Notes: generated by a model from the sequence alone, not told the origin. Counted from the stretch's first letter, positions 12,435-49,250 are shown. The stretch is 49,250 nt of DNA from Bacteroidales bacterium (GCA_035389045.1 DAOORA010000029.1:1-49250), one strand, 5' to 3'. Program-made: numbers and translations.

Positions 12435-15400
12435 ATGAATATTTCTGAACTTTCGATAAACAAGCCCATTCTCGCAACGGTAATGAATATTTTCATTATT
12501 CTGCTGGGTGTTATCGGATTTACTTTTCTTGGTGTGCGCGAATTTCCGGCCATTGACCCGCCTATAGTTTCTGTTTCTACATCATACGCCGGCGCCAATG
12601 CGGACATCATTGAAAGTCAGATCACCGAACCGCTTGAAAAAGAAATCAACGGTATTCCCGACATCAGAACAATCACGTCGTCGAGCTCCGTAGGCAACAG
12701 CAGGATCACCGTGGAGTTCAACATTGATGCTGACCTTGAAGCTGCAGCCAACGATGTTCGTGATAAGGTCAGCAGGGCCATGCGGAATCTTCCTAAGGAT
12801 ATTGATGCTGCTCCGGTTGTTTCTAAAGCAGATGCCAGCAGCGAATGGATAATTATGATGGCTATTCAGAGCCCCAGCAAAAGCCTGCTGGAATTGAGCG
12901 ATTATGCTGAGAATGTTCTTCAGAATAAGTTTCAGACCATCCCCGAAGTGAGCGCCGTGAATATTTTTGGCCAGAAACGCCCGGCGATGCGCTTATGGAT
13001 TGATCCCGGCAAAATGAATGCCTACAATATTACATTTAACGATATTTCCGGCATATTGAACAAAGAAAATGTTGAAATTCCTTCCGGGAAACTCTATGGT
13101 AATAAAACGGAGTTTACAATCAGTGCTATGGGAAAACTTACCTCGGAAGAAGATTTTAAAGACCTGATTATCCGCGAAACACAGGATGGCATTGTGAGGC
13201 TGAGCGATGTGGCACAAGTGGAAATAGGCCCGGAAAGATACGAGCAAAGCTGGAAACTGAACGGTGTGAACGGCGTAGGGCTCGCTATCGTCCCACAACC
13301 CGGGGCAAATTATATTAACATCTCTGATGAATTCAACAAACGCCTCGAAGAAATTAAAAAATCACAAAAAAGCGACATTGTATTTACGACATTATTAGAT
13401 AAAACTACCAATGTCAGACGATCATTGACCGAAGTCAGTGAAACCCTGGCCATATCCTTCGGATTGGTCATCCTGGTCATACTTTTCTTTTTCAGAAACT
13501 GGCTTATCGCCCTGCGGCCGCTGATAGATATTCCCATTTCGCTCAGCTCCACTTTTTTCATTATGTATATGGCCGGGTTTTCTATCAATATCCTTACACT
13601 GCTGGCCATTATTCTGGCAACCGGGCTGGTGGTGGATGACGGGATAGTTGTTACGGAAAATATTTTCCGAAGAATCGAAAAAGGGATACCTGTCAGAAAA
13701 GCCGCTATTGATGGCAGCAAAGAGATCTTTTTTGTGATCATTGCCACTTCGCTGACACTGGCAATCGTCTTTATCCCGGTATTATTCCTTCAGGGATTTG
13801 TTGGCAGTTTATTCCGCGAATTCGGAATTGTTCTGGCGTCTGCGGTTTTAGTTTCCGCATTTGTTTCGCTGACTATAACACCGGTTTTAAATATATACCT
13901 GAGTAAAAAAAATGCTCAGCAAACCAGGTTTTACACCAGTACAGAGCCTTTTTTCAAAGGAATGGAAAATGGTTATAAAAATCTGATTGAACGTTTTATA
14001 AAACACCGCGGTTTTGCCTGGGGAATAATTGCCGCATGTGTTTTATTGATATTTTTTATAGGAATAAATATTCAGAGCGAGGTGGCTCCCTTAGAAGATA
14101 AAAGCAATATCAATTTATCCTTAACGGGGCCCGAGGGCGCCAGTTATGCTTATATGATGGAGGTTGGAGATAAGATCAGTAGTTTTATTATGGATTCCTT
14201 ACCGGAAAATAGTTTCACGACCCTTACTATACCCGGATATGGAAGTACCGGAATAAACAGCGGCAGGGGAATGATCGGCCTGGTTCCGGTTTCTGTGCGT
14301 GACAAGTCTCAATCAGAAATCGCAATAGAGTTATCCAAAAAGTTTTCTCGGTTCAGGGATGTTAGGATCTTTCCAATAGAAGAACAGACCATTTCAGTAG
14401 GCATGGGCTCACGGGGATCCCTGCCTGTGCAGTTTGTACTGCAGAATCTTGATTTTGAAAAATTGAAAAGTGTCATCCCTCAGTTTTTGGATGAAGCACG
14501 GGCAGATAAGACATTCCAAAATGTGGATGTTAATTTAAAATTCAACAAACCTGAAGTAGATATTAACATCGACAGGATCAAAGCGCGGGAACTCGGCCTT
14601 ACCGTTACGGATATTGCAGAAGTCCTGCAAAGTGCTTTCAGCGGCCGCCGTTTAGCTTATTTCACCATGAACGGAAGGCAGTACCAGGTCATCAGCCAGG
14701 TAGCCCTGAAAGACCGGCAGGAATCAGCCGATATTTCCAAATTATATGTCCGCAGTAGCAAAGGAGACTTGATACCGCTGACATCTGTGATCAACATTGT
14801 TAACAATGCCAACCCGCCGACTATTTATCATTACAACCGCTATAAATCTGCAACTATTTCTGCCTCTCTTGCAGAAGGGAAAACAATAGGCGACGGGGTG
14901 GAAGTGATGCAATCCATAGCAGATAAATTGCTTGATGAGAGTTTTCAGACCTCGCTCAGCGGGCCTTCGCGCGATTATGCCGAAAGTTCTTCCAATACTG
15001 CTTTTGCATTCATTTTAGCGCTCGTACTCATATATCTTGTACTGGCCGCCCAGTTTGAAAGTTTTAAAGACCCCCTCACCATTATGATTACCGTTCCCCT
15101 GGCTATGGCTGGTGCATTTCTTTTTTTATGGATCTTCGGTCAGACACTGAACATTTTTTCTGAAATCGGGATGATAATGTTGATTGGACTTGTCACCAAA
15201 AACGGTATTCTTATCGTTGAATTTGCCAATAAAAAAAGAGTGGCGGGAATACCTAAATATCAGGCTATTGTTGACGCATCGGTTCAGCGGTTAAGGCCTA
15301 TTCTGATGACCAGCCTGGCTACTTCGCTGGGCGCCCTGCCAATTGCTATCGGCTTCGGAGCCGCATCTACCAGCAGAATCCCGCTCGGAATTGTGATCGT

Positions 15401-39565: not shown

Positions 39566-40471
39566 TTATTTTTCCAGTTTAAAAGTTGTTGTCCCTATAA
39601 CATTGTTTTCGGCAAAAATGTCGACGGTATAAGTTCCCGGAGTCAGTTCTTTCGATTTGTTCCAGTACAAACAAACATCAACAGGCTTATTGTTGTAAGC
39701 TATTTGTTCTTTTGCCGAATACTGTAATTTTTTACCGTCATAATCAAATGAATACTCATCGCCCGTTCCCTGAATTAATATATCTCCGTTGGGTTCTGCA
39801 ATGCGTGCATAGACGTTTTTGCTTCCAGCCGAAGCAATAGCATTTTCGCCAATGGTAAAACAAACGCGTATTTTTTCAACCTTTTTTGTCCGCTGGGTAG
39901 GAATTTCCTTTACTTTATTCCTGATAAATATACCATCCGAATTGATATCATAAGTTGTAAGCGCCGCGCCTTTGTTTACGGTTTCGGTGAGTGAGGTGTT
40001 TTCAGAGGACAGTTGTTTATTTTCTTCTGACGTGGAATCGAGTACTGTCTTGATATGAAAATTTTCTGCGACAAGCTCTTTATTTTGATTTTTCAGGTCT
40101 TCAATCTGCTGTTCGTATTCTTTCAGTCGTGTTTCCATGCTGGCCACCTGGTTTTTGTATTTAGCCACAGAACCTTCAGAATTTTTTATTTTTTGCAGCA
40201 ATTTTTCTACCTGCGCTTTTTCTTCGTTAAACATATCGGAAAGTTGCTCGTTGTCTTTGGCAAGTTGCTCGTATTCCTTTTTCATATTTTCCAGTTTGGC
40301 GATCGTCTGGTCTTTTTCTTCAGTTACACTGACAATGGTATCGCTTTGCTGTTTAACGGTCTTACTGAAACTGATCACTTTCCATGTCAGAATTCCGCAG
40401 GCTATCAGCAGAAGAATTGACAAATACATAAAGTAATTGGGACTTTTCCGTACTTCCGTGTTTGTTTCCAT
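39566..40471 (-). CDS. Membrane-anchored coiled-coil protein with C-terminal beta domain, paralog 2
   Basis: N-terminal TM, long heptad region, KIRVCFTI.EN...VYARI..P...GTY.V.IF. Confidence 0.8.
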   Translation of the reverse strand: METNTEVRKSPNYFMYLSILLLIACGILTWKVISFSKTVKQQSDTIVSVTEEKDQTIAKLENMKKEYEQLAKDNEQLSDMFNEEKAQVEKLLQKIKNSEGSVAKYKNQVASMETRLKEYEQQIEDLKNQNKELVAENFHIKTVLDSTSEENKQLSSENTSLTETVNKGAALTTYDINSDGIFIRNKVKEIPTQRTKKVEKIRVCFTIGENAIASAGSKNVYARIAEPNGDILIQGTGDEYSFDYDGKKLQYSAKEQIAYNNKPVDVCLYWNKSKELTPGTYTVDIFAENNVIGTTTFKLEK

Positions 40472-40501
40472 GTGGTTTTGATTTTAAGATTTAATACATT
40501 A

Positions 40502-41398
40502 TTATTTAAGGGTCAACTGGGTCTGGCCGATTTCCTTACCATCGGTAAATACGGCGATATGGTATGTCCCGGCAACAATACGGTCGGTTTTTTCATAGTA
40601 CAGATTTACATTGATCGGGGTTCCTTTGTAATAAACCTGTTCCTGAAGGGAATACATAATCTGCTGGCCATCGTATTCGAAGGAATTTCCTTCATTGAGG
40701 ATGGCATTATCCGGTCGTGCAATACGGACATAAACTGTTTTTAAGCCTTCGGTGACCAATGGATTTTTGGATAAGGTGAATGAAATTTTTATTTTTTCAA
40801 TTCTCTTGGCTTTATCTTCTAACTCTTCTTTTTTACCTCCCTGTCTGATACGGATTCCATAGGCGTTGAGCGAATGTGCCTGAAGAACGGCTGCCTGATT
40901 GATCTGCTCTTTCAGGGCTTCTTTATCTTTTTCAAGCAACTGGCTTTTATCTTTTTCCAGTTTTATATTTTCCTGCATTCCTTTTACTTCGGTTTTCAGG
41001 TTTTCATTTTCTTTAAGTAACTTATCTATTTGTGCCACATAATCCTGGGTTATGCCTCTGAGGTAGTCCAGTTTGCGTTGGATTTGATGTTTTCCGGCAT
41101 TGCTTTCAATAAGTTTCTGAATTTCGTCGGCCTGTGCCTGTATGGTACTGTCTTTAAGGCTCAGATCTTTTGTCAGATTCCCGTATTCGGTTCTGATCTT
41201 TTCATGTTCGGTCAGCAGAGAATCAAGTTCATTTTGTAAAACTGCCCGCTCACTGACAGCTTTGTCCTTTTCGATAATAAAAGTATTAACTTTGGAACGA
41301 CTTAGTATGAGCATAACCAGCAGGGCAAGAATAACAGCGGATTCAATACCTATAATTATTTTATATTTTTTTACTTTATTTTCGCCAACGGTGTCCAT
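40502..41398 (-). CDS. Membrane-anchored coiled-coil protein with C-terminal beta domain, paralog 1
   Basis: Same architecture (KIKISFTL.KN...VYVRI.RP...GTYHIAVF); TAATTTTG (minus strand) at 41415-41422. Confidence 0.8.
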   Translation of the reverse strand: MDTVGENKVKKYKIIIGIESAVILALLVMLILSRSKVNTFIIEKDKAVSERAVLQNELDSLLTEHEKIRTEYGNLTKDLSLKDSTIQAQADEIQKLIESNAGKHQIQRKLDYLRGITQDYVAQIDKLLKENENLKTEVKGMQENIKLEKDKSQLLEKDKEALKEQINQAAVLQAHSLNAYGIRIRQGGKKEELEDKAKRIEKIKISFTLSKNPLVTEGLKTVYVRIARPDNAILNEGNSFEYDGQQIMYSLQEQVYYKGTPINVNLYYEKTDRIVAGTYHIAVFTDGKEIGQTQLTLK

Positions 41399-41474
41399 CA
41401 CGTGATATTTTTTACAAAATTACTTAATTTTATCAATATATATAAAGAATAAACTCAAAATACCGGTATCTGTT

Positions 41475-42164
41475 GTGTCATACTTTTATGATTTTATATC
41501 GTTGTTTATTCCGCGTGTTTGTTACTCATGCGGTAATACGCTGTTCAGGCACGAAGAGGTTCTTTGCAGCTATTGTCTTCACCAGCTTCCGAAAACAAAT
41601 TATCATGCCGAAGAAAACAACCCTGTTTGTATGATTTTCTGGGGAAGGGTAACTATAAACCACGCATCCTCGATGTATTATTTTGCCAAAGGCGGCAAGG
41701 TTCAGCATTTGCTTCACCAGTTAAAATATAAAGGGATAAAAGAAATCGGCATATATACCGGTAAGTTATACGGTGTAACCCTGAAAAAATCGCCTTTTTA
41801 TACCGATGTCGATGTGATAATTCCCGTTCCTCTTCATCCCAAAAAACAAAGGAAAAGAGGTTATAATCAGAGTGAGATGTTTGCGTGCGGTCTGGCGGAA
41901 GCATTTTCGAAGCCTTATGATATCAAAACCCTTGTGCGCACGTATGCTTCGGAAACGCAGACAAAAAAATCAAGGTTCCGGCGTTGGGAAAATGTAAAAG
42001 AGATTTTTGCATTAAAAGACCATCAGCATATGATCAACAAGCATATACTGCTGGTTGATGATGTGGTGACTACGGGCGCCACCCTCGAAGCCTGTGCAAA
42101 CATGCTGCTTCAGATTCCCGGGGTAAAGGTAAGTATTGCCACTATTGCCTGTGCGATCCGGTAG
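41475..42164 (+). CDS. comF: ComF family protein (zinc ribbon plus PRTase domain)
   Basis: CxxC...CxxC, PVPLH, RGYNQS and LLVDDVVTTGATL motifs; GTG start. Confidence 0.93.
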   Translation: MSYFYDFISLFIPRVCYSCGNTLFRHEEVLCSYCLHQLPKTNYHAEENNPVCMIFWGRVTINHASSMYYFAKGGKVQHLLHQLKYKGIKEIGIYTGKLYGVTLKKSPFYTDVDVIIPVPLHPKKQRKRGYNQSEMFACGLAEAFSKPYDIKTLVRTYASETQTKKSRFRRWENVKEIFALKDHQHMINKHILLVDDVVTTGATLEACANMLLQIPGVKVSIATIACAIR

Positions 42165-42201: not shown

Positions 42202-42328
42202 GTCTAACGACAAGCATATCACAAAGCTAACTGCTTTTTGGACATTTGCAAAATGAAAATAACTTTCGCGAAGCGACCTTGAATTTGCAAATACTTTGAT
42301 GTCCACACGCATTACTGGGGGGTTGTGC
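42202..42328 (-). repeat. Degenerate attC-like site F
   Basis: Coding strand: TAG stop overlapping GCACAAC ... GTTAGAC; 119 bp AAC-to-GTT; inner stem TGGACAT/ATGTCCA and TTGCAAA/TTTGCAA; outer arms do not pair. Confidence 0.5.
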
Positions 42329-42620
42329 TATGTAACTGTTTTATTTGTAAATTCATACAATTTGTCAGTGTTTATTCCTTTTTCTGTTACCTTTTGCCAA
42401 TTTATTTTTGTCAGTGATTTTAACCTTAAAGTGTCTTGAAAGAGTTTAAACGCTTTTTTTGACAATTACTATTGTAGTATTCTTCAATAGTGCTTGATAA
42501 CTCTGCAATCATCTCGCACGTAAAATCATTTTCCTCAGTTTCGAGATTCATAGTTATATTATAAAACACAAAATCAAATTGATGCGATGAGTCTATCTGT
42601 TCGAAAATAACACCTTGGTC
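42328..42620 (-). pseudogene. Decayed cassette ORF remnant
   Basis: DQGVIFEQ...MNLETEENDFTCEMIAEL... shifts frame near the T7 tract (42454-42460) into KKAFKLFQ...NKTVT*, whose TAG overlaps site F; upstream in-frame stops. Confidence 0.5.
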
Positions 42621-42693
42621 TTATAATTTTATTTTTCGTAATTATTAATAGAATATACAGATTCTTCTTGGCATGAACATTCAATTTATATTC

Positions 42694-43020
42694 AACCAGA
42701 TTCAACTGCTTATTTAATAGGAATAATAGGTTAATATTAAGAAAATCTCCGCGCCTTTTGGTCCAAATAATATCACCCTGCTGTCTCACGAACAAATCAA
42801 TTACTTATGGGCACCTCTAAAAACTTCAAATTTCTTCGTTCATCTTCGTTCTTCAAGTCCTCATGTACGCTCAGTACACTGCGGTTTTCAGAACTTCGAC
42901 TGCCTCGAACTTTTTTGTTTTTAGAGGCGCCCGATCAAGGTTATTAGAGATGCCCTTATTCTAACATTTCCAAACCCACAAAACTCCGCATTAAATAAGC
43001 TTGCAGTTATGCACTGCAAA
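42694..43020 (-). repeat. attC-like site E interrupted by a MITE
   Basis: GTTATGCAC at 43006 just after the FISUMP stop; arms GCTTATTTAAT (42708-42718) and ATTAAATAAGC (42990-43000); about 164 bp once the insertion is removed. Confidence 0.55.
42809..42955. mobile_element. MITE-like non-autonomous element (147 bp)
   Basis: Left IR GGGCACCTCTAAAAAC; right IRs GTTTTTAGAGGCGCCC (42917-42932, 15/16) and GTTATTAGAGATGCCC (42940-42955, 14/16); TTAT direct repeat on both flanks. Confidence 0.8.
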
Positions 43021-43024
43021 TAAA

Positions 43025-43981
43025 TTAGTTCTTTATCAACTTTTGCTGATATCTCTCTTCTTCTTCAGACAATCTAATTAGATAAATTCCTGATGTCAGG
43101 GAACTAATATCTATCCCGTTTGATCCACTTGTCAAATCGCATTGTAAAACACAATCTCCTATAATGTTATACACTTGCATTTTTAAATCTTTTCTGTCGC
43201 CACAGTCAATAATTATTTTATCAATTGCTGGATTTGGATAAATTTGAATTTGTTTATCAATACTGTTCTCATTAATTTGAGTAGCCAAAATATCCATAAT
43301 GCACCTAACTGAAAAACCGGAAGCCTTCTCGTAACTGCCTCGGTTTATCTGAGATTTACTAGGATCCAGTGTGCGTTCCCATACTTGATTACCAGCACTA
43401 CACGCTGTACCTGTCCACCAGTCACCTTGGTCACAAATAGCGTAGAATGTACCATTATTATAGTAACGCCAACCGCCGGGAAGAGCAGTAAAACCACTGC
43501 TATTGGTTGCCCCCGTGTTTAAACTATTCCAATGTGTCGTTCCTACTTCTTTTAATTTATTGCCAATATCTGTACCTGCCCAACCTATGATAGTGGTATC
43601 AATGGTGTTATCCAAATATTTTTCCATAATATTCCATTCTCCATCACTGGGAACATGCCAGCCTGTTGGACATATATTATTGGCCTCGGTGGCAGCATAC
43701 CAATTGTATAAAGCACCATAAATAGGTGCATAAGTACTGGAATCATTATCATAATAACATCTTCCACCAGTATTAAGACTGATCCATGTTGCGTTAGATG
43801 TAATATTTGGAATAGTAGTTCCATCTAAATAATGTGTAACTTTCAAATTTTCTTTCATCCAAACCTGTGTTCCAATAGTAAGAGTATTATAAACATTCCC
43901 GTCGATGTCTGTTACTGTTTGTGCTTGATTCTTAAATGTTAAAAATGCGAGTCCGGCAAATAGTAAAATTGCGTGTTTCAT
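43025..43981 (-). CDS. FISUMP (Fibrobacter succinogenes major paralogous) domain protein with T9SS sorting domain
   Basis: DIDGNVY, QVWMKENL, YGALYNWYA, CPTGWHVPS, GFTALPGG and GFSVRCI motifs; C-terminal IYPNPA...GIYLIRL...KLIKN. Confidence 0.92.
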   Translation of the reverse strand: MKHAILLFAGLAFLTFKNQAQTVTDIDGNVYNTLTIGTQVWMKENLKVTHYLDGTTIPNITSNATWISLNTGGRCYYDNDSSTYAPIYGALYNWYAATEANNICPTGWHVPSDGEWNIMEKYLDNTIDTTIIGWAGTDIGNKLKEVGTTHWNSLNTGATNSSGFTALPGGWRYYNNGTFYAICDQGDWWTGTACSAGNQVWERTLDPSKSQINRGSYEKASGFSVRCIMDILATQINENSIDKQIQIYPNPAIDKIIIDCGDRKDLKMQVYNIIGDCVLQCDLTSGSNGIDISSLTSGIYLIRLSEEEERYQQKLIKN

Positions 43982-44150
43982 ATTTAAAAAATTTGTGTGT
44001 AAAATTGAATTAGTGATTGACTACTTTGGCTTTATGTTAAAAAAGTGTCAAAAATATTTTATTTATTCTTGGTTGGTATGGCCTTGTGGATTTATGGAGA
44101 TTTCATAATGTCTTGTTTCGTTAGTTGTTAATAATCAAGGTTTTTATTAG

Positions 44151-44292
44151 GTACGACGATCCCGTGGCTGCTTTTCGCCCCGCAATTTAGTAACTTTCTT
44201 GTCAAAATAAACCATAATTTTCAAATTTTCACAATCCTGTCAACCGTGCTATGCCTGCGGGGTGAAAGCAGACACAAGTTATGCAACGTTAA
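44151..44292 (-). repeat. attC-like site D (family 1), distal GTT changed to GTC
   Basis: Plus strand GAC(44155-57)...GTGGCTGCTTTTCGCCCCGCA...TGCGGGGTGAAAGCAGACAC..GTT(44278-80); 126 bp. Confidence 0.8.
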
Positions 44293-44328
44293 TTTTGTTT
44301 TTTTTAATCATGTCGTGTCAGAGTGAAA

Positions 44329-45186
44329 TTAATTCTTGACGACTATTGCTTTTCTAAAATATGTATTATCATTAGTTTTCAGACGATAAATATAAAACCC
44401 ATTTGCACAGTTTTCTGAAGAAAATTCAATAATATATTCCTTGTCTTTATGAACTTCATTGTCAAATATTCTTTTAATGTGTCTGCCATTAATATCAAAT
44501 ATGTCAAGTTTTGCATTAGTATTATAAGGTACGGAAAAAGTGAAACTTGTCTTATCGTTAAAAGGATTAGGAATATTTTTTAATGAAACATTTTTATTTA
44601 TTTGACTAATATTTTCTTCATCAATAGTCACAGGAGTGCAATCCAGAGTTCCAAAACCATTGTTTTGGGTAAGAGTAACTGTACAGACATCAGGGGTGGT
44701 TCTTGATATCATCATAATATAATATTGACCTGTTATTCCATTTGGGATATAACAAAATTCACCAAATGAAGCACTACTACTGCAATCGATCATGTTCAGT
44801 GTTGGATACCATACACTTGGACCCGGAGAGCCATGAGTTGGCGTATAAGTGCCTGCTGTAAGTTGTGCAACACATGGTGTTGTAAGTGAGGTAAAAGGAC
44901 CCCAGCAAACAAAATTAAGATTATACGATGGTGTGCATGTTATTTCAAGAGCAAGGTCCCCTGAATTAAGAATCTTCAAATAAAACCATGAAAAATTAGG
45001 TTGGGGTCCATACAGACAACCATAATTTGGGCCAATTTCTGAACTGTCAGCAAGAGATCCAGCACTTAAATTAACAGGCTGTCCAGTACAAATTAATGTT
45101 GCACTGTCGCATGAAAAGCCCTGTGATTTACAAATGATCGATATTAGGAAAAACACCAGTCCGAAAAAGTAAAATTTTGTCTTCAT
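44329..45186 (-). CDS. Cys-containing secreted protein with T9SS sorting domain (cassette gene)
   Basis: Signal peptide; GPNYGCL...WFY...CWGPF...GQYYIMMI domain; C-terminal PNPFN...GFYIYRL...IVVKN. Confidence 0.85.
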   Translation of the reverse strand: MKTKFYFFGLVFFLISIICKSQGFSCDSATLICTGQPVNLSAGSLADSSEIGPNYGCLYGPQPNFSWFYLKILNSGDLALEITCTPSYNLNFVCWGPFTSLTTPCVAQLTAGTYTPTHGSPGPSVWYPTLNMIDCSSSASFGEFCYIPNGITGQYYIMMISRTTPDVCTVTLTQNNGFGTLDCTPVTIDEENISQINKNVSLKNIPNPFNDKTSFTFSVPYNTNAKLDIFDINGRHIKRIFDNEVHKDKEYIIEFSSENCANGFYIYRLKTNDNTYFRKAIVVKN

Positions 45187-45197
45187 GGTTTTATTTT

Positions 45198-45349
45198 TTA
45201 ATGTTGCATAACGACGGTCGAGGCTTGCTATTCGGCGGGGCGAATCGAAGCCGTTTCCTGTCCAAATACGCTGAGGCTTGATAAAAGAACTGCACTGTCC
45301 TATAAACCGTCTGCCCCGCTGGTAGCAAGCCTTTGTTGTATGCTGGCAA
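45198..45349 (-). repeat. attC-like site C (family 2)
   Basis: Plus strand AAC(45210-12)...AGGCTTGCTATTCGGCGGGGC...GCCCCGCTGGTAGCAAGCCT..GTT(45335-37); 128 bp. Confidence 0.85.
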
Positions 45350-45363
45350 TTTGTTCAATAGCA

Positions 45364-47064
45364 TTAATTTACCCTTTCAAATATTATATTCTTTGCTCTT
45401 GGATTATTTATTACAAGGCTTTTAATTGCTCCGTTTTCTTCTAAAAAGGAAATTGATTGTATTAAACCTAAATTGCTTTTAAATGTCAGGTTTTCTGAGT
45501 GTTCAAGAATTACTTCATTCGGAAAGGTGGAACTTTGAATTATCAATTTATCGTTTTCATATTTAATATCATATTTAATATCAAGCTCCTTAGAATAGAA
45601 AGTACCTATTAACTTGTCGTAATTAATATTTGTTTCTTTTTTGTTTTCTTCAACTTTTAAAGCTAGGTAACTATTTCCATTTTGTTCAAGCGTATGGCTG
45701 TTTACCTTTCCATTTCTTAAATGAAATACGAATTCAGCTTTAGCTTCTTTTACAAAATATACTGAATCTGATTTGGCATATAATTTATAGTTCTTGTTAT
45801 ACATGTTTAAAAAATACTCATCACCTTCTTTGAAAAAAGTCAGATAGCAATCTTTGTCGTCAACCTGTTGGTATTTACCTGCACAAAAAGCGAAAAAATC
45901 ATCGTTTAATTCTTGCTCAGTTGACACACTTTCTTTTGTTTTCTTCTCTGTCTTATCGCCAAATAAAATATCAGCAATGGCATTTAATATTTTTTTAGGG
46001 TCAAGTGTTCCATTATTACTTAAAATAACCACACCAACACTTTCTTCAGGGAAATAAACTATACCTGAGCGGTAACCGCCCCAAGAACCATCATGATAAT
46101 AAGCTTTCTTGTCTTTTATTTCAGTTATGTATAATCCATAACCATAATCTATGGTTTTGCTATTGTTTAAATTACCTTTTGTGGTTATTTTATTAAAAGC
46201 ATCATTGCCACCCAATATCTTACTATTAAAGTTTGTCAACCATTTTGACATATCAGCAGTGCTGCTCATTAGCGAACTAGAACCAAAAGCACTGAGATTA
46301 TTAGAAAAAGAAAGGTAATCTTTTCCATTATAAACATAAGAATTAGCTATTACGTTTTCTTCTGATTTGTTACTTTCAACAAAGTAAGTATTCTCCATTC
46401 CTATAGGAGCAAATATATTTTCATGTATCCAACTTTTAAATGTTGTATCTGTAACGGCTTCAACTATTTTTGCCAAAAGATTGTAATTTGAATTACTATA
46501 TAAAAATTCAGTGCCCGGAGTAAAGTTTAAACTTTCTTGTTTCTTAAGGATTTCATAAATGTCATTTAATGAAAGTGGCTCTTCGGGCTGCCATCCTTTC
46601 AACGCAAATAGCGTTGGCCAATCTCTAATACCGGAGGTGTGATGAACAAGTTGATATATTGTAATGTCACTCATAGCCTCCGATAAATCAGGTAGATATT
46701 TAATGATTTTATCATTAATATTGATTTTACCTTTTTCTTCTAAAAGAGCTATTGCCATTCCTGTAAATTGTTTGCTATCAGAGGCTATATCAAAAATCGT
46801 ATTTTCGGTAATTGGCGTTTTTTTGTCTAAATCAGCAGAACCGAAATTCCCTTTATATAAGATAGAATTCTTCTTTGTAATTATTACCGACAATCCAGGC
46901 TTATTTTTTCCATTTAAATCTCCTGTTTTATTTAAAACTTGCTGTTCAAAGTACGAATCTAATTGTGGTTTCAACGCCCTTTCCTGTACTGTCTTGCACT
47001 GGATAAGACTAATAATTACCATTAATCCTAATCCAAGTGTTCCAATTTTTTTCTTTTTCAACAT
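45364..47064 (-). CDS. Serine hydrolase, beta-lactamase/PBP (AmpC-like) family, possible lipoprotein (cassette gene)
   Basis: SxxK in IASDSKQF, HTSGI, PGTEFLYSNSNY and HDGSWGGY motifs; LIQC possible lipobox. Confidence 0.9.
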   Translation of the reverse strand: MLKKKKIGTLGLGLMVIISLIQCKTVQERALKPQLDSYFEQQVLNKTGDLNGKNKPGLSVIITKKNSILYKGNFGSADLDKKTPITENTIFDIASDSKQFTGMAIALLEEKGKININDKIIKYLPDLSEAMSDITIYQLVHHTSGIRDWPTLFALKGWQPEEPLSLNDIYEILKKQESLNFTPGTEFLYSNSNYNLLAKIVEAVTDTTFKSWIHENIFAPIGMENTYFVESNKSEENVIANSYVYNGKDYLSFSNNLSAFGSSSLMSSTADMSKWLTNFNSKILGGNDAFNKITTKGNLNNSKTIDYGYGLYITEIKDKKAYYHDGSWGGYRSGIVYFPEESVGVVILSNNGTLDPKKILNAIADILFGDKTEKKTKESVSTEQELNDDFFAFCAGKYQQVDDKDCYLTFFKEGDEYFLNMYNKNYKLYAKSDSVYFVKEAKAEFVFHLRNGKVNSHTLEQNGNSYLALKVEENKKETNINYDKLIGTFYSKELDIKYDIKYENDKLIIQSSTFPNEVILEHSENLTFKSNLGLIQSISFLEENGAIKSLVINNPRAKNIIFERVN

Positions 47065-47106
47065 GCTCTGTTAATGTTAAATTTAGAAATGTGCGTTCTG
47101 TTTCTT

Positions 47107-47255
47107 TTGCTTGCATACAACGCCGTGTGGCTGCTTTTGAGCCGCATTTTATTTTCCGTTCCTGTCAAAATTCCCATAGCTTTCAAATTTGTCCCAAACT
47201 GTCAAACTGTCCCGCACTGCGGCTTTAAAGCAGACACGAGTTACCAGCAGGTTTA
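47107..47255 (-). repeat. attC-like site B (family 1)
   Basis: Plus strand AAC(47119-21)...GTGGCTGCTTTTGAGCCGCA...TGCGGCTTTAAAGCAGACAC..GTT(47240-42); 124 bp. Confidence 0.85.
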
Positions 47256-47258
47256 TTG

Positions 47259-48857
47259 TTAATCTTCAAATCCAATTTTCAATATTATTTCTTCACACGC
47301 CTTTGTAATTTTTGCAGTCCTGACATTTTCTGTCGGATAAATTAAATAGCCTGAACTTTGTACAGCTTTGAAATTATATGTCCCGATATTCATATTATAA
47401 GATTGTGACGCTTTGCCAGGTATTGTTTCAATAAACTTACTTCCTTGATATAAGTTGTATGGATTGGAAGATTTATTTTGAAATGTAATGATGCCTTGAT
47501 TCTTCTTCTCACAGTCTGGAGTAAGCAGTTCTTTTAAAACATTTTCAAAAACAGCATCAACCTTGTCTAGTTCGGATTTTATTTTCTTATCAAGATTATA
47601 GTTCTTTATGTCGGCAAGATAATAATTGTTATTACAACAGTTCGAATCACTTGGACAAAAGATGCCTGAACAATTATTGTACTTGACTTCCAAATCCGTT
47701 AAGTACTTTTCGGCTACACTGTTTAATGAAATAAAAACTGGTAAGACCTCATCATATTTGTTCATAATTTTTGTTATATAATTTTGAGGCATCTCAAATT
47801 CATTTAGATTTTGTTTCAATTGTTCTTTACCTGAACCTGTAACTAATTCGTCAAGGAGTGTTTTTGCTGAATATACCTTGATTACTGCTTCATTTATTTT
47901 TGTTAATTGATTTTGTTTCTTGTCGTCCCAATATATTCCTTCAATGCCATATAACGTAAAAGGTGAGTAATAATATTGAGTAATGATGCTTTGATTTGGG
48001 TCGGAAATATTTTTTATTGCACTTTCAATTATTGAAGCAATTGCAACAGCTTTATCCTGTGAATCTCCATTTAAAATGTCTTTTATTTGTCCTTGTATTA
48101 CGCTCTGTTCAATAGCTGGGCCATCAATTTCAACTGAAATTGAGAACTCATTTTGTTCTAATTGTCTATTGGTCCAATTTCCATTTACAATTTCAAAAGA
48201 ACCGGAACCTTTAAGAGGAATATCACCACCTGTCTGAACTGATGAATTTTCATTCTCATTGCTGCTATTCTTAGTTCCTGTCTTGGTTAATATTACAGAA
48301 ATACTACTCTCTTTGCGTATTCCACTAATATAATGAGTGCCATAAAAACTAATAAAATCCTGAAACCTTTTCTGAGTTATAAGCGATTTTGCTTCGGTTA
48401 TTAATTGAGGGTCTGTCTGAAATGAATAAACACCAAAGTCAACATTTGCATTAAATATTAGTCTTTCTTCATCCTTGATATTCTTGTTAGCATATTCTTC
48501 TAATTTTTGTCCGCCTAAGGTGAATAAATTAAGAAAACTGACTTTTCCTGATGCACCTCTTTTTTTAAAGTCATTATACTCAGAATTAGTTTTTGTATAA
48601 AACAAATGAATAGAAGTTTTCTTACCTGTCTGTTGCGGTGTGAGTTTATTCGGGTTTGATGTCTCTGAGGTAAAGCAAGATCTTGTTTGTTTATAAATAT
48701 CGTTTATGTGAAAACCTTTACCAATTTTAATTGGTGGCGCTAAATTGTCCTTGTTAAAATAATTTGCATCGAATACACTTGTGGATTGAGCATGTATGAA
48801 ACTAAATGCTGTCAGTGTCAAGATGAAAGTCAATGTCCTTTTAAGATAACTTTTCAT
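47259..48857 (-). CDS. Secreted protein with MACPF-like signature (cassette gene)
   Basis: True start ATG 48857 (MKSYLKRTLTFILTLTAFSFIHAQ signal); IGKGFHI near the N-terminus and FISFYGTHYISG; the track's longer N-terminus runs through site A. Confidence 0.6.
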   Translation of the reverse strand: MKSYLKRTLTFILTLTAFSFIHAQSTSVFDANYFNKDNLAPPIKIGKGFHINDIYKQTRSCFTSETSNPNKLTPQQTGKKTSIHLFYTKTNSEYNDFKKRGASGKVSFLNLFTLGGQKLEEYANKNIKDEERLIFNANVDFGVYSFQTDPQLITEAKSLITQKRFQDFISFYGTHYISGIRKESSISVILTKTGTKNSSNENENSSVQTGGDIPLKGSGSFEIVNGNWTNRQLEQNEFSISVEIDGPAIEQSVIQGQIKDILNGDSQDKAVAIASIIESAIKNISDPNQSIITQYYYSPFTLYGIEGIYWDDKKQNQLTKINEAVIKVYSAKTLLDELVTGSGKEQLKQNLNEFEMPQNYITKIMNKYDEVLPVFISLNSVAEKYLTDLEVKYNNCSGIFCPSDSNCCNNNYYLADIKNYNLDKKIKSELDKVDAVFENVLKELLTPDCEKKNQGIITFQNKSSNPYNLYQGSKFIETIPGKASQSYNMNIGTYNFKAVQSSGYLIYPTENVRTAKITKACEEIILKIGFED

Positions 48858-48886
48858 TTGTTTAGATTGTTTATGTTTTTTTCTTT

Positions 48887-49036
48887 TAAACTTGCTGGTA
48901 ACGGTTTGGCGGTTGCTGTTCGGTGGCGATTTCACCACTAAGGTTTCCACGAAGAACAAAGGTTTCAAAAAGCACTTCACTGTCATACGAAGCACTGTCC
49001 CGCCACTGACAGCAAACGCCTGTTACCGCCTGGTGT
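48887..49036 (-). repeat. attC-like site A (family 2)
   Basis: Plus strand AAC(48900-02)...GGCGGTTGCTGTTCGGTGGCG...CGCCACTGACAGCAAACGCC.GTT(49022-24); 125 bp. Confidence 0.85.
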
Positions 49037-49250
49037 TCTTTCATCTGTCTTTGTAAACCATTGTCAACATTGAGTTTCTCTGTCATTGTCATTTTACTTT
49101 CTTGTCTGTCTGTGTCGGCTCGTATGTTTGCGTTTTTTATTTTTCTTAAAGGGTCAGGAAATTTTTTTAAAACAATTTTTCTTTAGCGTTGGCTTGTAAG
49201 CCGCCGGCGAAATGCATCTTTCCCATCTGATCAAATAGATGCAACTTGCG

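Follow-up and report, generated by a model that had tools for sequence, protein, structure and literature searches.

A probable integron-like gene-cassette array without a recombinase gene of its own in a Bacteroidales genome

Integrons are regarded as rare in Bacteroidota or missing from the phylum altogether, and the insertion in the integrase IntI is treated as essential for reading the folded attC site, an imperfect palindrome of 57–141 nt between ...AAC and GTT.... A stretch of 49,250 nucleotides from a Bacteroidales bacterium (GCA_035389045.1, DAOORA010000029.1:1-49250; hereafter the window) raises the question whether genes followed by such palindromes form integron-like cassettes in this phylum, and which recombinase would move them. 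The window spans the full length of contig C29 of the source genome (G000), whose assembly comprises 135 contigs (4.46 Mb, 40.9% GC), is 96.3% complete and lacks contigs below ~2.2 kb. Positions 42,202 to 49,036 are, at a probability of roughly 0.8 judged from sequence comparison, the partly decayed distal part of a ~12-kb integron-like Bacteroidota cassette array, which has no recombinase gene of its own and would be moved in trans, the candidate enzyme being a tyrosine recombinase of 504 residues encoded on contig C124. A preliminary description of the window had proposed a phylum-native cassette system here, with a recombinase lying beyond the right edge or acting in trans.

Cassettes and hairpin sites behind comF

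The minus strand 3′ of comF carries four intact genes and a remnant of 47 aa, as the preliminary description had stated. The hairpin sites behind them were scored with R1, a covariance model built from ten sites of the source genome, and with a broader model, R2. Listed in the sense of the array, which runs on the minus strand, the features are:

49196..49250, no strand: end of an unassembled insertion sequence (IS) or repeat interrupting cassette 1; last 55 nt, where the contig ends; the same 55-mer starts C134
49025..49195, minus: non-coding tail of cassette 1, including the 8-bp target duplication AAGCCAAC at 49188-49195
49024-48900, minus: site s0, type A; 125 nt, AAC...GTT, R1 111.5 bits; closes the first cassette (Tiamat)
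47259..48857, minus: cassette gene, 532 aa, with a signal-peptide-like N-terminus and no family match
47242-47119, minus: site s1, type B; 124 nt, AAC...GTT, R1 99 bits, fold predicted
45364..47064, minus: cassette gene, 566 aa, serine beta-lactamase/penicillin-binding-fold hydrolase (PF00144, 200 bits)
45337-45210, minus: site s2, type C; 128 nt, AAC...GTT, R1 103.5 bits, fold predicted
44329..45186, minus: cassette gene, 285 aa, secreted, with a type IX secretion sorting domain
44280-44155, minus: site s3, type B; 126 nt, ending in GTC, R1 101.7 bits, fold predicted
43025..43981, minus: cassette gene, 318 aa, secreted, with a Fib_succ_major domain and a type IX secretion C-terminal sorting domain
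42704..43008, minus: site s4, damaged, read directly; AAC at 43008, R'' = GCATAAC at 43014-43006; possible 3′ arm ...TTAAATAAGC-A-GTT near 42704
~42795-42969, no strand: miniature inverted-repeat transposable element (MITE) inserted in s4; inverted repeat with termini GGGCGCCTCTAAAAAC / GTTTTTAGAGGTGCCC
42426..42569, minus: 47-aa remnant or short open reading frame (ORF), no family match
42324-42206, minus: site s5, decayed, the last of the array; 119 nt, AAC...GTT, fold -17 kcal/mol
41475..42164, plus: comF-like gene, 229 aa, with a phosphoribosyltransferase domain (PF00156); conserved chromosomal border at the distal end of the array

The size and core of attC are found in s0, s1, s2 and s5 (AAC...GTT, 119–128 nt), while s3 runs from AAC to GTC and s4 is disrupted. 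The spans given in the preliminary description (125, 124, 128, 126 and 119 bp) are therefore right in length and wrong in the GTT end of s3. Its statement that each repeat begins within 0–50 nt of a stop codon holds for four of the five (16, 26, 48 and 16 nt from stop to AAC behind the intact genes) and fails for the remnant (101 nt), and its sixth site, split by a MITE, is s4. Blastn finds 26 matches to this MITE (~125–175 nt) elsewhere in the assembly, at 70–99% identity and all on other contigs, and one copy adjoins a solitary hairpin site on contig C16. By eye, s4 and s5 look like decayed copies, the 3′ arm of s5 being akin to type-B sites in alignment.

The junctions between the units carry a trace expected of cassette exchange. 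The nine bases after the 3′ triplet of each site were compared with the nine that precede the AAC of the following site, read as reverse complement, which gave 7, 8, 7 and 8 of 9 for the junctions from the head site of the array (on contig C86, described below) to s0, s0 to s1, s1 to s2 and s2 to s3; complementarity of R' and R'' is thus present at four of five junctions. Among 31 non-adjacent pairs used as a control the mean was 2.35 and the maximum 6, and the chance of reaching at least 7 of 9 is 0.0013 per pair. Such complementarity is the footprint expected if each unit had earlier been circularised through its own hairpin.

Two of the units recur elsewhere. A second copy of the 285-aa cassette and its site lies at C43:91-1141 (96.7% identity over 1053 nt), where homology begins exactly at GTTATGCAAC, after a different hairpin (R2 28.6 bits). 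The 566-aa cassette recurs in other contexts in two metagenome contigs, L059 (91%) and L060 (81%), which were found by an exact 30-nt search, so that conservation of that 30-mer is by selection, whereas the positions of the breaks are independent of the key; homology to both starts at window position 47120/47121, that is at G/TT, the slash marking the boundary. In L060 the 566-aa unit is flanked by two other hairpins, of which that on the downstream side is a member of the site family (R2 43 bits), while that on the upstream side, likewise different, was read by eye and matched by no model. Homology to the cassette copies thus begins at GTT in three of three comparisons, and on this evidence the units appear as recombination-bounded cassettes.

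Sites s0–s3 form one sequence family of three subtypes (nhmmer E 1e-22 to 1e-34; R1 99–111 bits), whose stems differ through compensatory changes. In the scan that the preliminary description had called for, R1 recovered just 12 sites (E ≤ 3e-5) from the 4.46 Mb of the source genome; four lie in these 5 kb, all on the gene strand; the broader model added one further site, and the total comes to 12–14 copies. Among 39 distinct sites from the source genome and relatives, stem cells pair in 92.5% of cases, against 68.5% for shuffled and 36–50% for slid partners, the latter being the fairer control for an alignment fitted to the covariance model and so favouring structure, and nine of ten stem pairs show changes on both sides. 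The stem of the site is kept by compensatory change, its structure being under selection. In predicted pairing, all 31 sites with both triplets leave ~2 nt unpaired after AAC and 5–8 nt before GTT. The loops of s1, s3 and s0 (47150-47210, 44190-44250 and 48950-49000) keep short motifs across subtypes (GACAG, TTTGAAA and TTTTGACAGG); a Bacteroidota-type promoter formed by TTTGAAA and GACAG was considered and dropped, as their spacing, judged by eye, is wrong for one. No Rfam family reached its gathering score in the window.

The cassette genes are of low GC content (26–36%, against 40.9% for the genome) and the cassettes are large (0.9–4.8 kb). A listed GTG frame of 578 aa for the 532-aa gene crosses s0, and the ATG at 48857 is therefore the likely start. 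The 318-aa gene has a paralogue on contig C116 (70–73% nucleotide identity). Positions 1-5675 of C116 are a second array fragment; its successive elements are a mini-site ...ACACAATC/GTT, the gene of a secreted protein of 297 aa, a hairpin of type B, a HigB/HigA-like pair, the 318-aa-gene paralogue and the gene of an AAA/DUF4143 ATPase. The HigBA unit starts with GTTACCCAA, which roughly resembles TTTGGTAATC after HigA. The toxin-antitoxin pair is our own reading and has no family match. Upstream of the 566-aa cassette, positions 1-113 of L059 hold a promoter-like module with a TATTTTTG box, homologous to the stretch after the last C43 hairpin (C43 ~1200-1345) and ending in ...GAGCTTACAACAACA/TT, which resembles the attI-like motif described below.

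The proximal end of the array lies beyond the window. The last ~55 nt of contig C86 are common to C19, the last 55 nt of the window are common to the start of C134, and the 8 nt outside these shared ends pair up (AAGCCAAC in C86 and C29; GAATATTC in C19 and C134), so that an IS present in two copies, with 8-bp target duplications, joins C86 to the window. Its imperfect terminal repeats measure ~29 nt (GTAAGC...GCATCTTTCCC), and it is inserted a few bases from a short hairpin ending in ...GCAAAGCCAAC within cassette 1. On C86 an 881-aa gene comes first, then a short site ...ATATTGCTGCATGTGCAGCAAGCCAAAC/GTTACCGCC, and after it a 1016-aa gene and a 346-aa gene. The 1016-aa gene encodes a full-length Tiamat TmtA (PADLOC 909.7 bits; residues 14-1016 on profile 5-1038 of 1063). 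The GTTACCGCC of the head site matches R'' (GGCGGTAAC) of s0, and TmtA and the 346-aa gene (C86 10811-15003; 30% and 26% GC, the product of the latter without a family match) therefore constitute cassette 1.

The chromosomal insertion point is visible in relatives. Homologues of comF occur in 18 of 18 genomes of the genus, and in eight relatives comF and a ~870-aa gene lie 0–45 nt apart or overlap; in the source genome the homologue of the latter is the 881-aa gene on C86, with the head site after it. The contigs of the three closest relatives end 104–526 nt after comF, and in the two of these three that were compared there is no homology to the source genome beyond comF. With the border genes adjacent in relatives and unrelated sequence beyond comF, the array is a lineage-specific, variable insert, which spans ~12 kb between the 881-aa gene and comF, the window holding its distal 7 kb. 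Chain, re-use with GTT boundaries and a locus absent or different in relatives together bear out the integron-like layout seen by the preliminary description. Two adjoining paralogous genes of ~300 aa each (39566-41401), with a coiled-coil N-terminal half and a conserved C-terminal half, lie upstream of comF and are conserved together with comF throughout the genus.

From comF to the 881-aa gene the assembled parts contain no recombinase ORF, the interior of the IS being unassembled. Beyond the right edge follow an IS, one more cassette, an attI-like head and a conserved chromosomal gene, with no recombinase among them, and the alternative of an enzyme in trans therefore stands, with its candidate on C124. 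In the structural sense only, the locus has the form of a CALIN (cluster of attC sites lacking integron-integrase), namely two or more sites clustered with no recombinase gene at either end.

The candidate recombinase and its arrays in relatives

Profile searches covered 41 genomes (the source genome, 17 of its genus and others of the family and order), which are mutually related and many of them incomplete. The cut-off of the integron-integrase model TIGR02249 (265 bits) was reached in none of the 41. Its best match in the source genome is the 504-aa C124 protein (219.7 bits), which aligns with model positions 7-180 and 238-315 and skips 181-237. Among NCBIfam models the same protein ranks best with XerA (NF040815; 223.8 bits, cut-off 220), while its homologues in genomes G018 and G027 fall under that cut-off (204 and 184.6 bits). 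In structure comparison XerA and VchIntIA tie, and the core aligns with the archaeal XerA structures 4a8e and 5hxy. The insertion of VchIntIA is said, after MacDonald and colleagues in 2006, to contact extrahelical bases of the site. The preliminary description had advised looking for this IntI-specific insertion in the recombinase of the genome, and it is lacking: 64 residues of VchIntIA (2a3v, 180-243) face 22 in the G018 homologue. The C124 protein keeps the catalytic set R, K, H, R, H and Y intact, and 11 homologues show no variation in it.

The C124 protein also has an N-terminal extension, which in the family measures 140–230 residues and consists of one or two repeats. The predicted model of the protein shows two such repeats of beta-beta-alpha-beta-beta-alpha-beta layout, and a single repeat folded alone reaches a predicted local distance difference test score (pLDDT) of 94. 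By VIA-align the repeat resembles the T4 UvsW N-terminal domain (Z 6.9), XPB (6.2) and the SMARCAL1 HARP domain (4.3), and also the unrelated eIF1 fold (7.2), all below 8; Pfam HARP scores 21.7 bits on the N-terminal repeats against a cut-off of 25, and a Foldseek search with the repeat gave no match at E ≤ 0.001. These predictions are no more than suggestive; the repeats may bind branched DNA.

The adjacency of this recombinase family to the sites is plainest in the closed genome G018, where a 413-aa homologue (13223-14464, minus strand) is followed by at least 28 same-strand R1 sites (E < 1e-6), which extend from 12699 downwards through the origin as far as 4839759. Between 4000 and 12700 this array consists mostly of tandem ~440-bp units, each with a hairpin site and no ORF of at least 50 aa on the array strand; it also holds two insertions, each with a 306-aa tyrosine recombinase and a 384–386-aa protein which by eye resembles an IS91-type transposase. 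Of the 11 recombinase loci examined, five have same-strand sites downstream, three meet a contig end within 350 nt and three have no site at E ≤ 0.01, one of these last (G023) showing a weak match (E 0.11). The site family itself is present in 26 of the 41 genomes, all of one order. The label phylum-native given in the preliminary description is borne out by this spread, by the absence of any protein over the IntI cut-off and by the same-strand sites after a XerA/IntI-like recombinase in five of 11 loci.

A motif ...ACAACACAAAC/GTT, here called attI-like, stands behind the recombinase gene in G000, G002, G006 and G015. Sequences of G006 and G015 diverge right past GTTAT, and the contigs C124 of G000 (1-33) and C125 of G002 end there; two independent assemblies thus break exactly at the attI-like GTT, as would be expected in a de Bruijn graph of a population with different first cassettes. 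These contig ends are an indirect hint that excision or insertion may take place there. An array or attI-like site follows the C124 family in nine of 11 loci, counting the five with sites, the attI-like sites of G000, G002 and G015 and G023 with no more than its weak match. The source genome has just two attI-like sites, one behind the C124 recombinase and the other at the head of the array on C86, and the two are ~80% identical. In G006 the units behind the attI-like site, as read from translations, include two restriction-modification-like gene pairs.

Mechanism and rival explanations

In the proposed order, in cassette sense, the 881-aa gene and the attI-like head would be followed by cassette 1 (TmtA, the 346-aa gene, the IS and s0), by cassettes 2–5, in which the 532-, 566-, 285- and 318-aa genes are closed by s1, s2, s3 and s4, and then by the remnant with s5 and by comF. 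A trans-acting tyrosine recombinase would fold and recombine the sites, inserting cassettes at the head site and excising them between sites. The bases after GTT would belong to the next cassette, whose pre-AAC box they complement, as the residue of circle excision and re-insertion at G/TT. The putative enzyme would be the C124 protein, with its XerA/IntI-like core and no IntI insertion. We infer its role as the recombinase, as well as the strand used and the exact crossover point.

Several observations weigh against this account. At the s3–s4 junction the chain breaks (2/9) and s3 ends in GTC; a MITE-linked deletion is possible there, because a short stretch resembles a MITE end. Neither s4 nor s5 is recognised by R1 or R2. 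The C43 copy loses homology ~10 nt before the far-end GTT, and homology with L059 and L060 stops at the AAC of s2 (45332/45334) and not at the hairpin end, which crossover solely at G/TT does not predict; concerted evolution of hairpin bodies within a genome is the simpler reading of the breaks at AAC, and is indistinguishable from one that invokes the strand or side of crossover. Homologues of the 532-aa gene (55–57% identity) in three other contigs from metagenome-assembled genomes have no R1 sites, the sequence of one, L056, having also been inspected; as homologues without sites, they are no evidence on the cassette origin of the gene. The C124 recombinase is unlinked to the window array in the assembly, and across the 41 genomes sites and recombinase (E ≤ 1e-25) overlap only in part (both in 19, recombinase only in six, sites only in seven, neither in nine). 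No recombination product, circle or strain-level polymorphism appeared in the comparisons, which draw on species representatives and short metagenome contigs; recombination is inferred from sequence.

Layout, AAC/GTT cores, a length of 119–128 nt and the R'/R'' chain are all properties of classical cassettes, and the locus could thus be an ordinary integron remnant (CALIN), with standard attC sites of a canonical IntI, acquired by horizontal transfer from a lineage of classical integrons or left with its IntI gene unassembled, for which the stated completeness and contig-size floor of the assembly leave room. Such an origin is very improbable, since no genome of the 41, the source included, passes the TIGR02249 cut-off, the site family is native to the clade and stands in relatives behind a recombinase without the insertion, and in all 31 sites the spacer is found on the GTT side, opposite to the classical attC as described in PMC5027507. 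The hairpins might instead be repetitive extragenic palindromes or miniature mobile elements behind genes, perhaps terminators or stabilisers of mRNA, unrelated to cassette exchange. By our own reading each site closely follows the 3′ end of an ORF of the same orientation (4/4 in the window, 7/7 elsewhere in the source genome), and some solitary copies lack AAC and GTT, as on C16 (CTATC...GATAG, among genes including a housekeeping-looking GTPase) and likewise on C46. Elements of this kind, however, would not yield flanks that complement the flank of the next element across a whole gene, homology breaks exactly at GTT, or at least 28 same-strand copies beginning right after a recombinase gene, and just 12–14 copies exist in 4.46 Mb, all of which makes this explanation highly unlikely.

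The cassettes could also be real and be moved by another enzyme, either a further tyrosine recombinase of the genome (those on contigs C12, C24, C45, C53 and C37) or one borne by a phage or plasmid, with the C124 protein serving, for example, in dimer resolution. The C124 protein does pass the XerA equivalog cut-off, its gene has no physical link to the window array, and seven of the 41 genomes have sites and no such recombinase at E ≤ 1e-25. Separate recombinases of Xer size (312 and 313 aa) are nonetheless encoded on C12 and C24, the C124 family is followed by an array or attI-like site in nine of 11 loci, and the array head is ~80% identical to the site behind C124; another enzyme is accordingly rated unlikely.

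Place among integrons and significance

The array resembles the sedentary chromosomal integrons and CALINs, such as that of V. cholerae with its V. cholerae repeats (VCR) of ~125 nt, in its co-oriented and mostly promoterless genes, each followed by an imperfect palindrome of ~125 nt with an AAC...GTT core. As in chromosomal integrons, the sites within the genome are related, each cassette is complementary at its left end to its own inverse core, and the cargo is of low GC content and includes an anti-phage system (Tiamat), with a toxin-antitoxin pair in the sister fragment C116. It differs from complete integrons in having an attI-like head and no adjacent recombinase, and from classical cassettes in the large size of its units. 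In relatives the recombinase, attI-like site and array lie in this order on the same strand, a likeness shared with the 'inverted integrase' layout of some non-proteobacterial integrons.

The associated recombinase, unlike that of integrons, is without the IntI insertion and has one or two extra N-terminal repeats. It is like XerA, XerC and XerD in that the catalytic core of the C124 protein is closest to XerA and no phage-type arm-binding domain is present, and unlike them in its N-terminal extension and in that its gene heads cassette arrays and not a dif locus. According to the available part of Smyshlyaev et al. 2021 (PMC8138268), the IntI insertion is incompletely conserved in an 'integron-like' subgroup of simple tyrosine recombinases, and relatives of IntI without the insertion are therefore known as sequences; that part of the source describes no cassette arrays or sites for such proteins. 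The sites differ from the classical attC, whose extrahelical bases stand across the hairpin from the AAC of the recombined bottom strand, on the other arm (PMC5027507): here the unpaired spacer is on the GTT arm, which is the arm with the bottom-strand AAC.

In the available part of a survey of more than 20,000 genomes (the IntegronFinder 2 paper, PMC9024848), Bacteroidetes have only cassette-less integrases and one complete integron, in Salinibacter, and reviews, as far as their available text goes, count Bacteroidota among the phyla with integrons without detail. The literature searched yielded no description of cassette arrays behind an insertion-less recombinase in Bacteroidota. It is conceivable, at somewhat less than even odds, that Bacteroidota have an integron lineage of their own, with a Xer-like recombinase, N-terminal domains binding branched DNA in place of the IntI insertion, and hairpins of reversed asymmetry. 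Given that asymmetry and the two homology stops at AAC, such a system may also cut the other strand, or both sides of the hairpin, and so shuffle genes and hairpins as separate modules. Standard integron finders, which require that insertion, would then miss the whole lineage.

The locus and its relatives have the look of a working cassette platform without the IntI insertion, in a phylum which dominates gut, soil and wastewater communities. Should the recombinase be confirmed, the definition of the integron would widen, a natural experiment on the recognition of hairpin sites would be at hand, and a large hidden pool of mobile cassettes would come into view, represented here by secreted proteins, a beta-lactamase-fold hydrolase and Tiamat.

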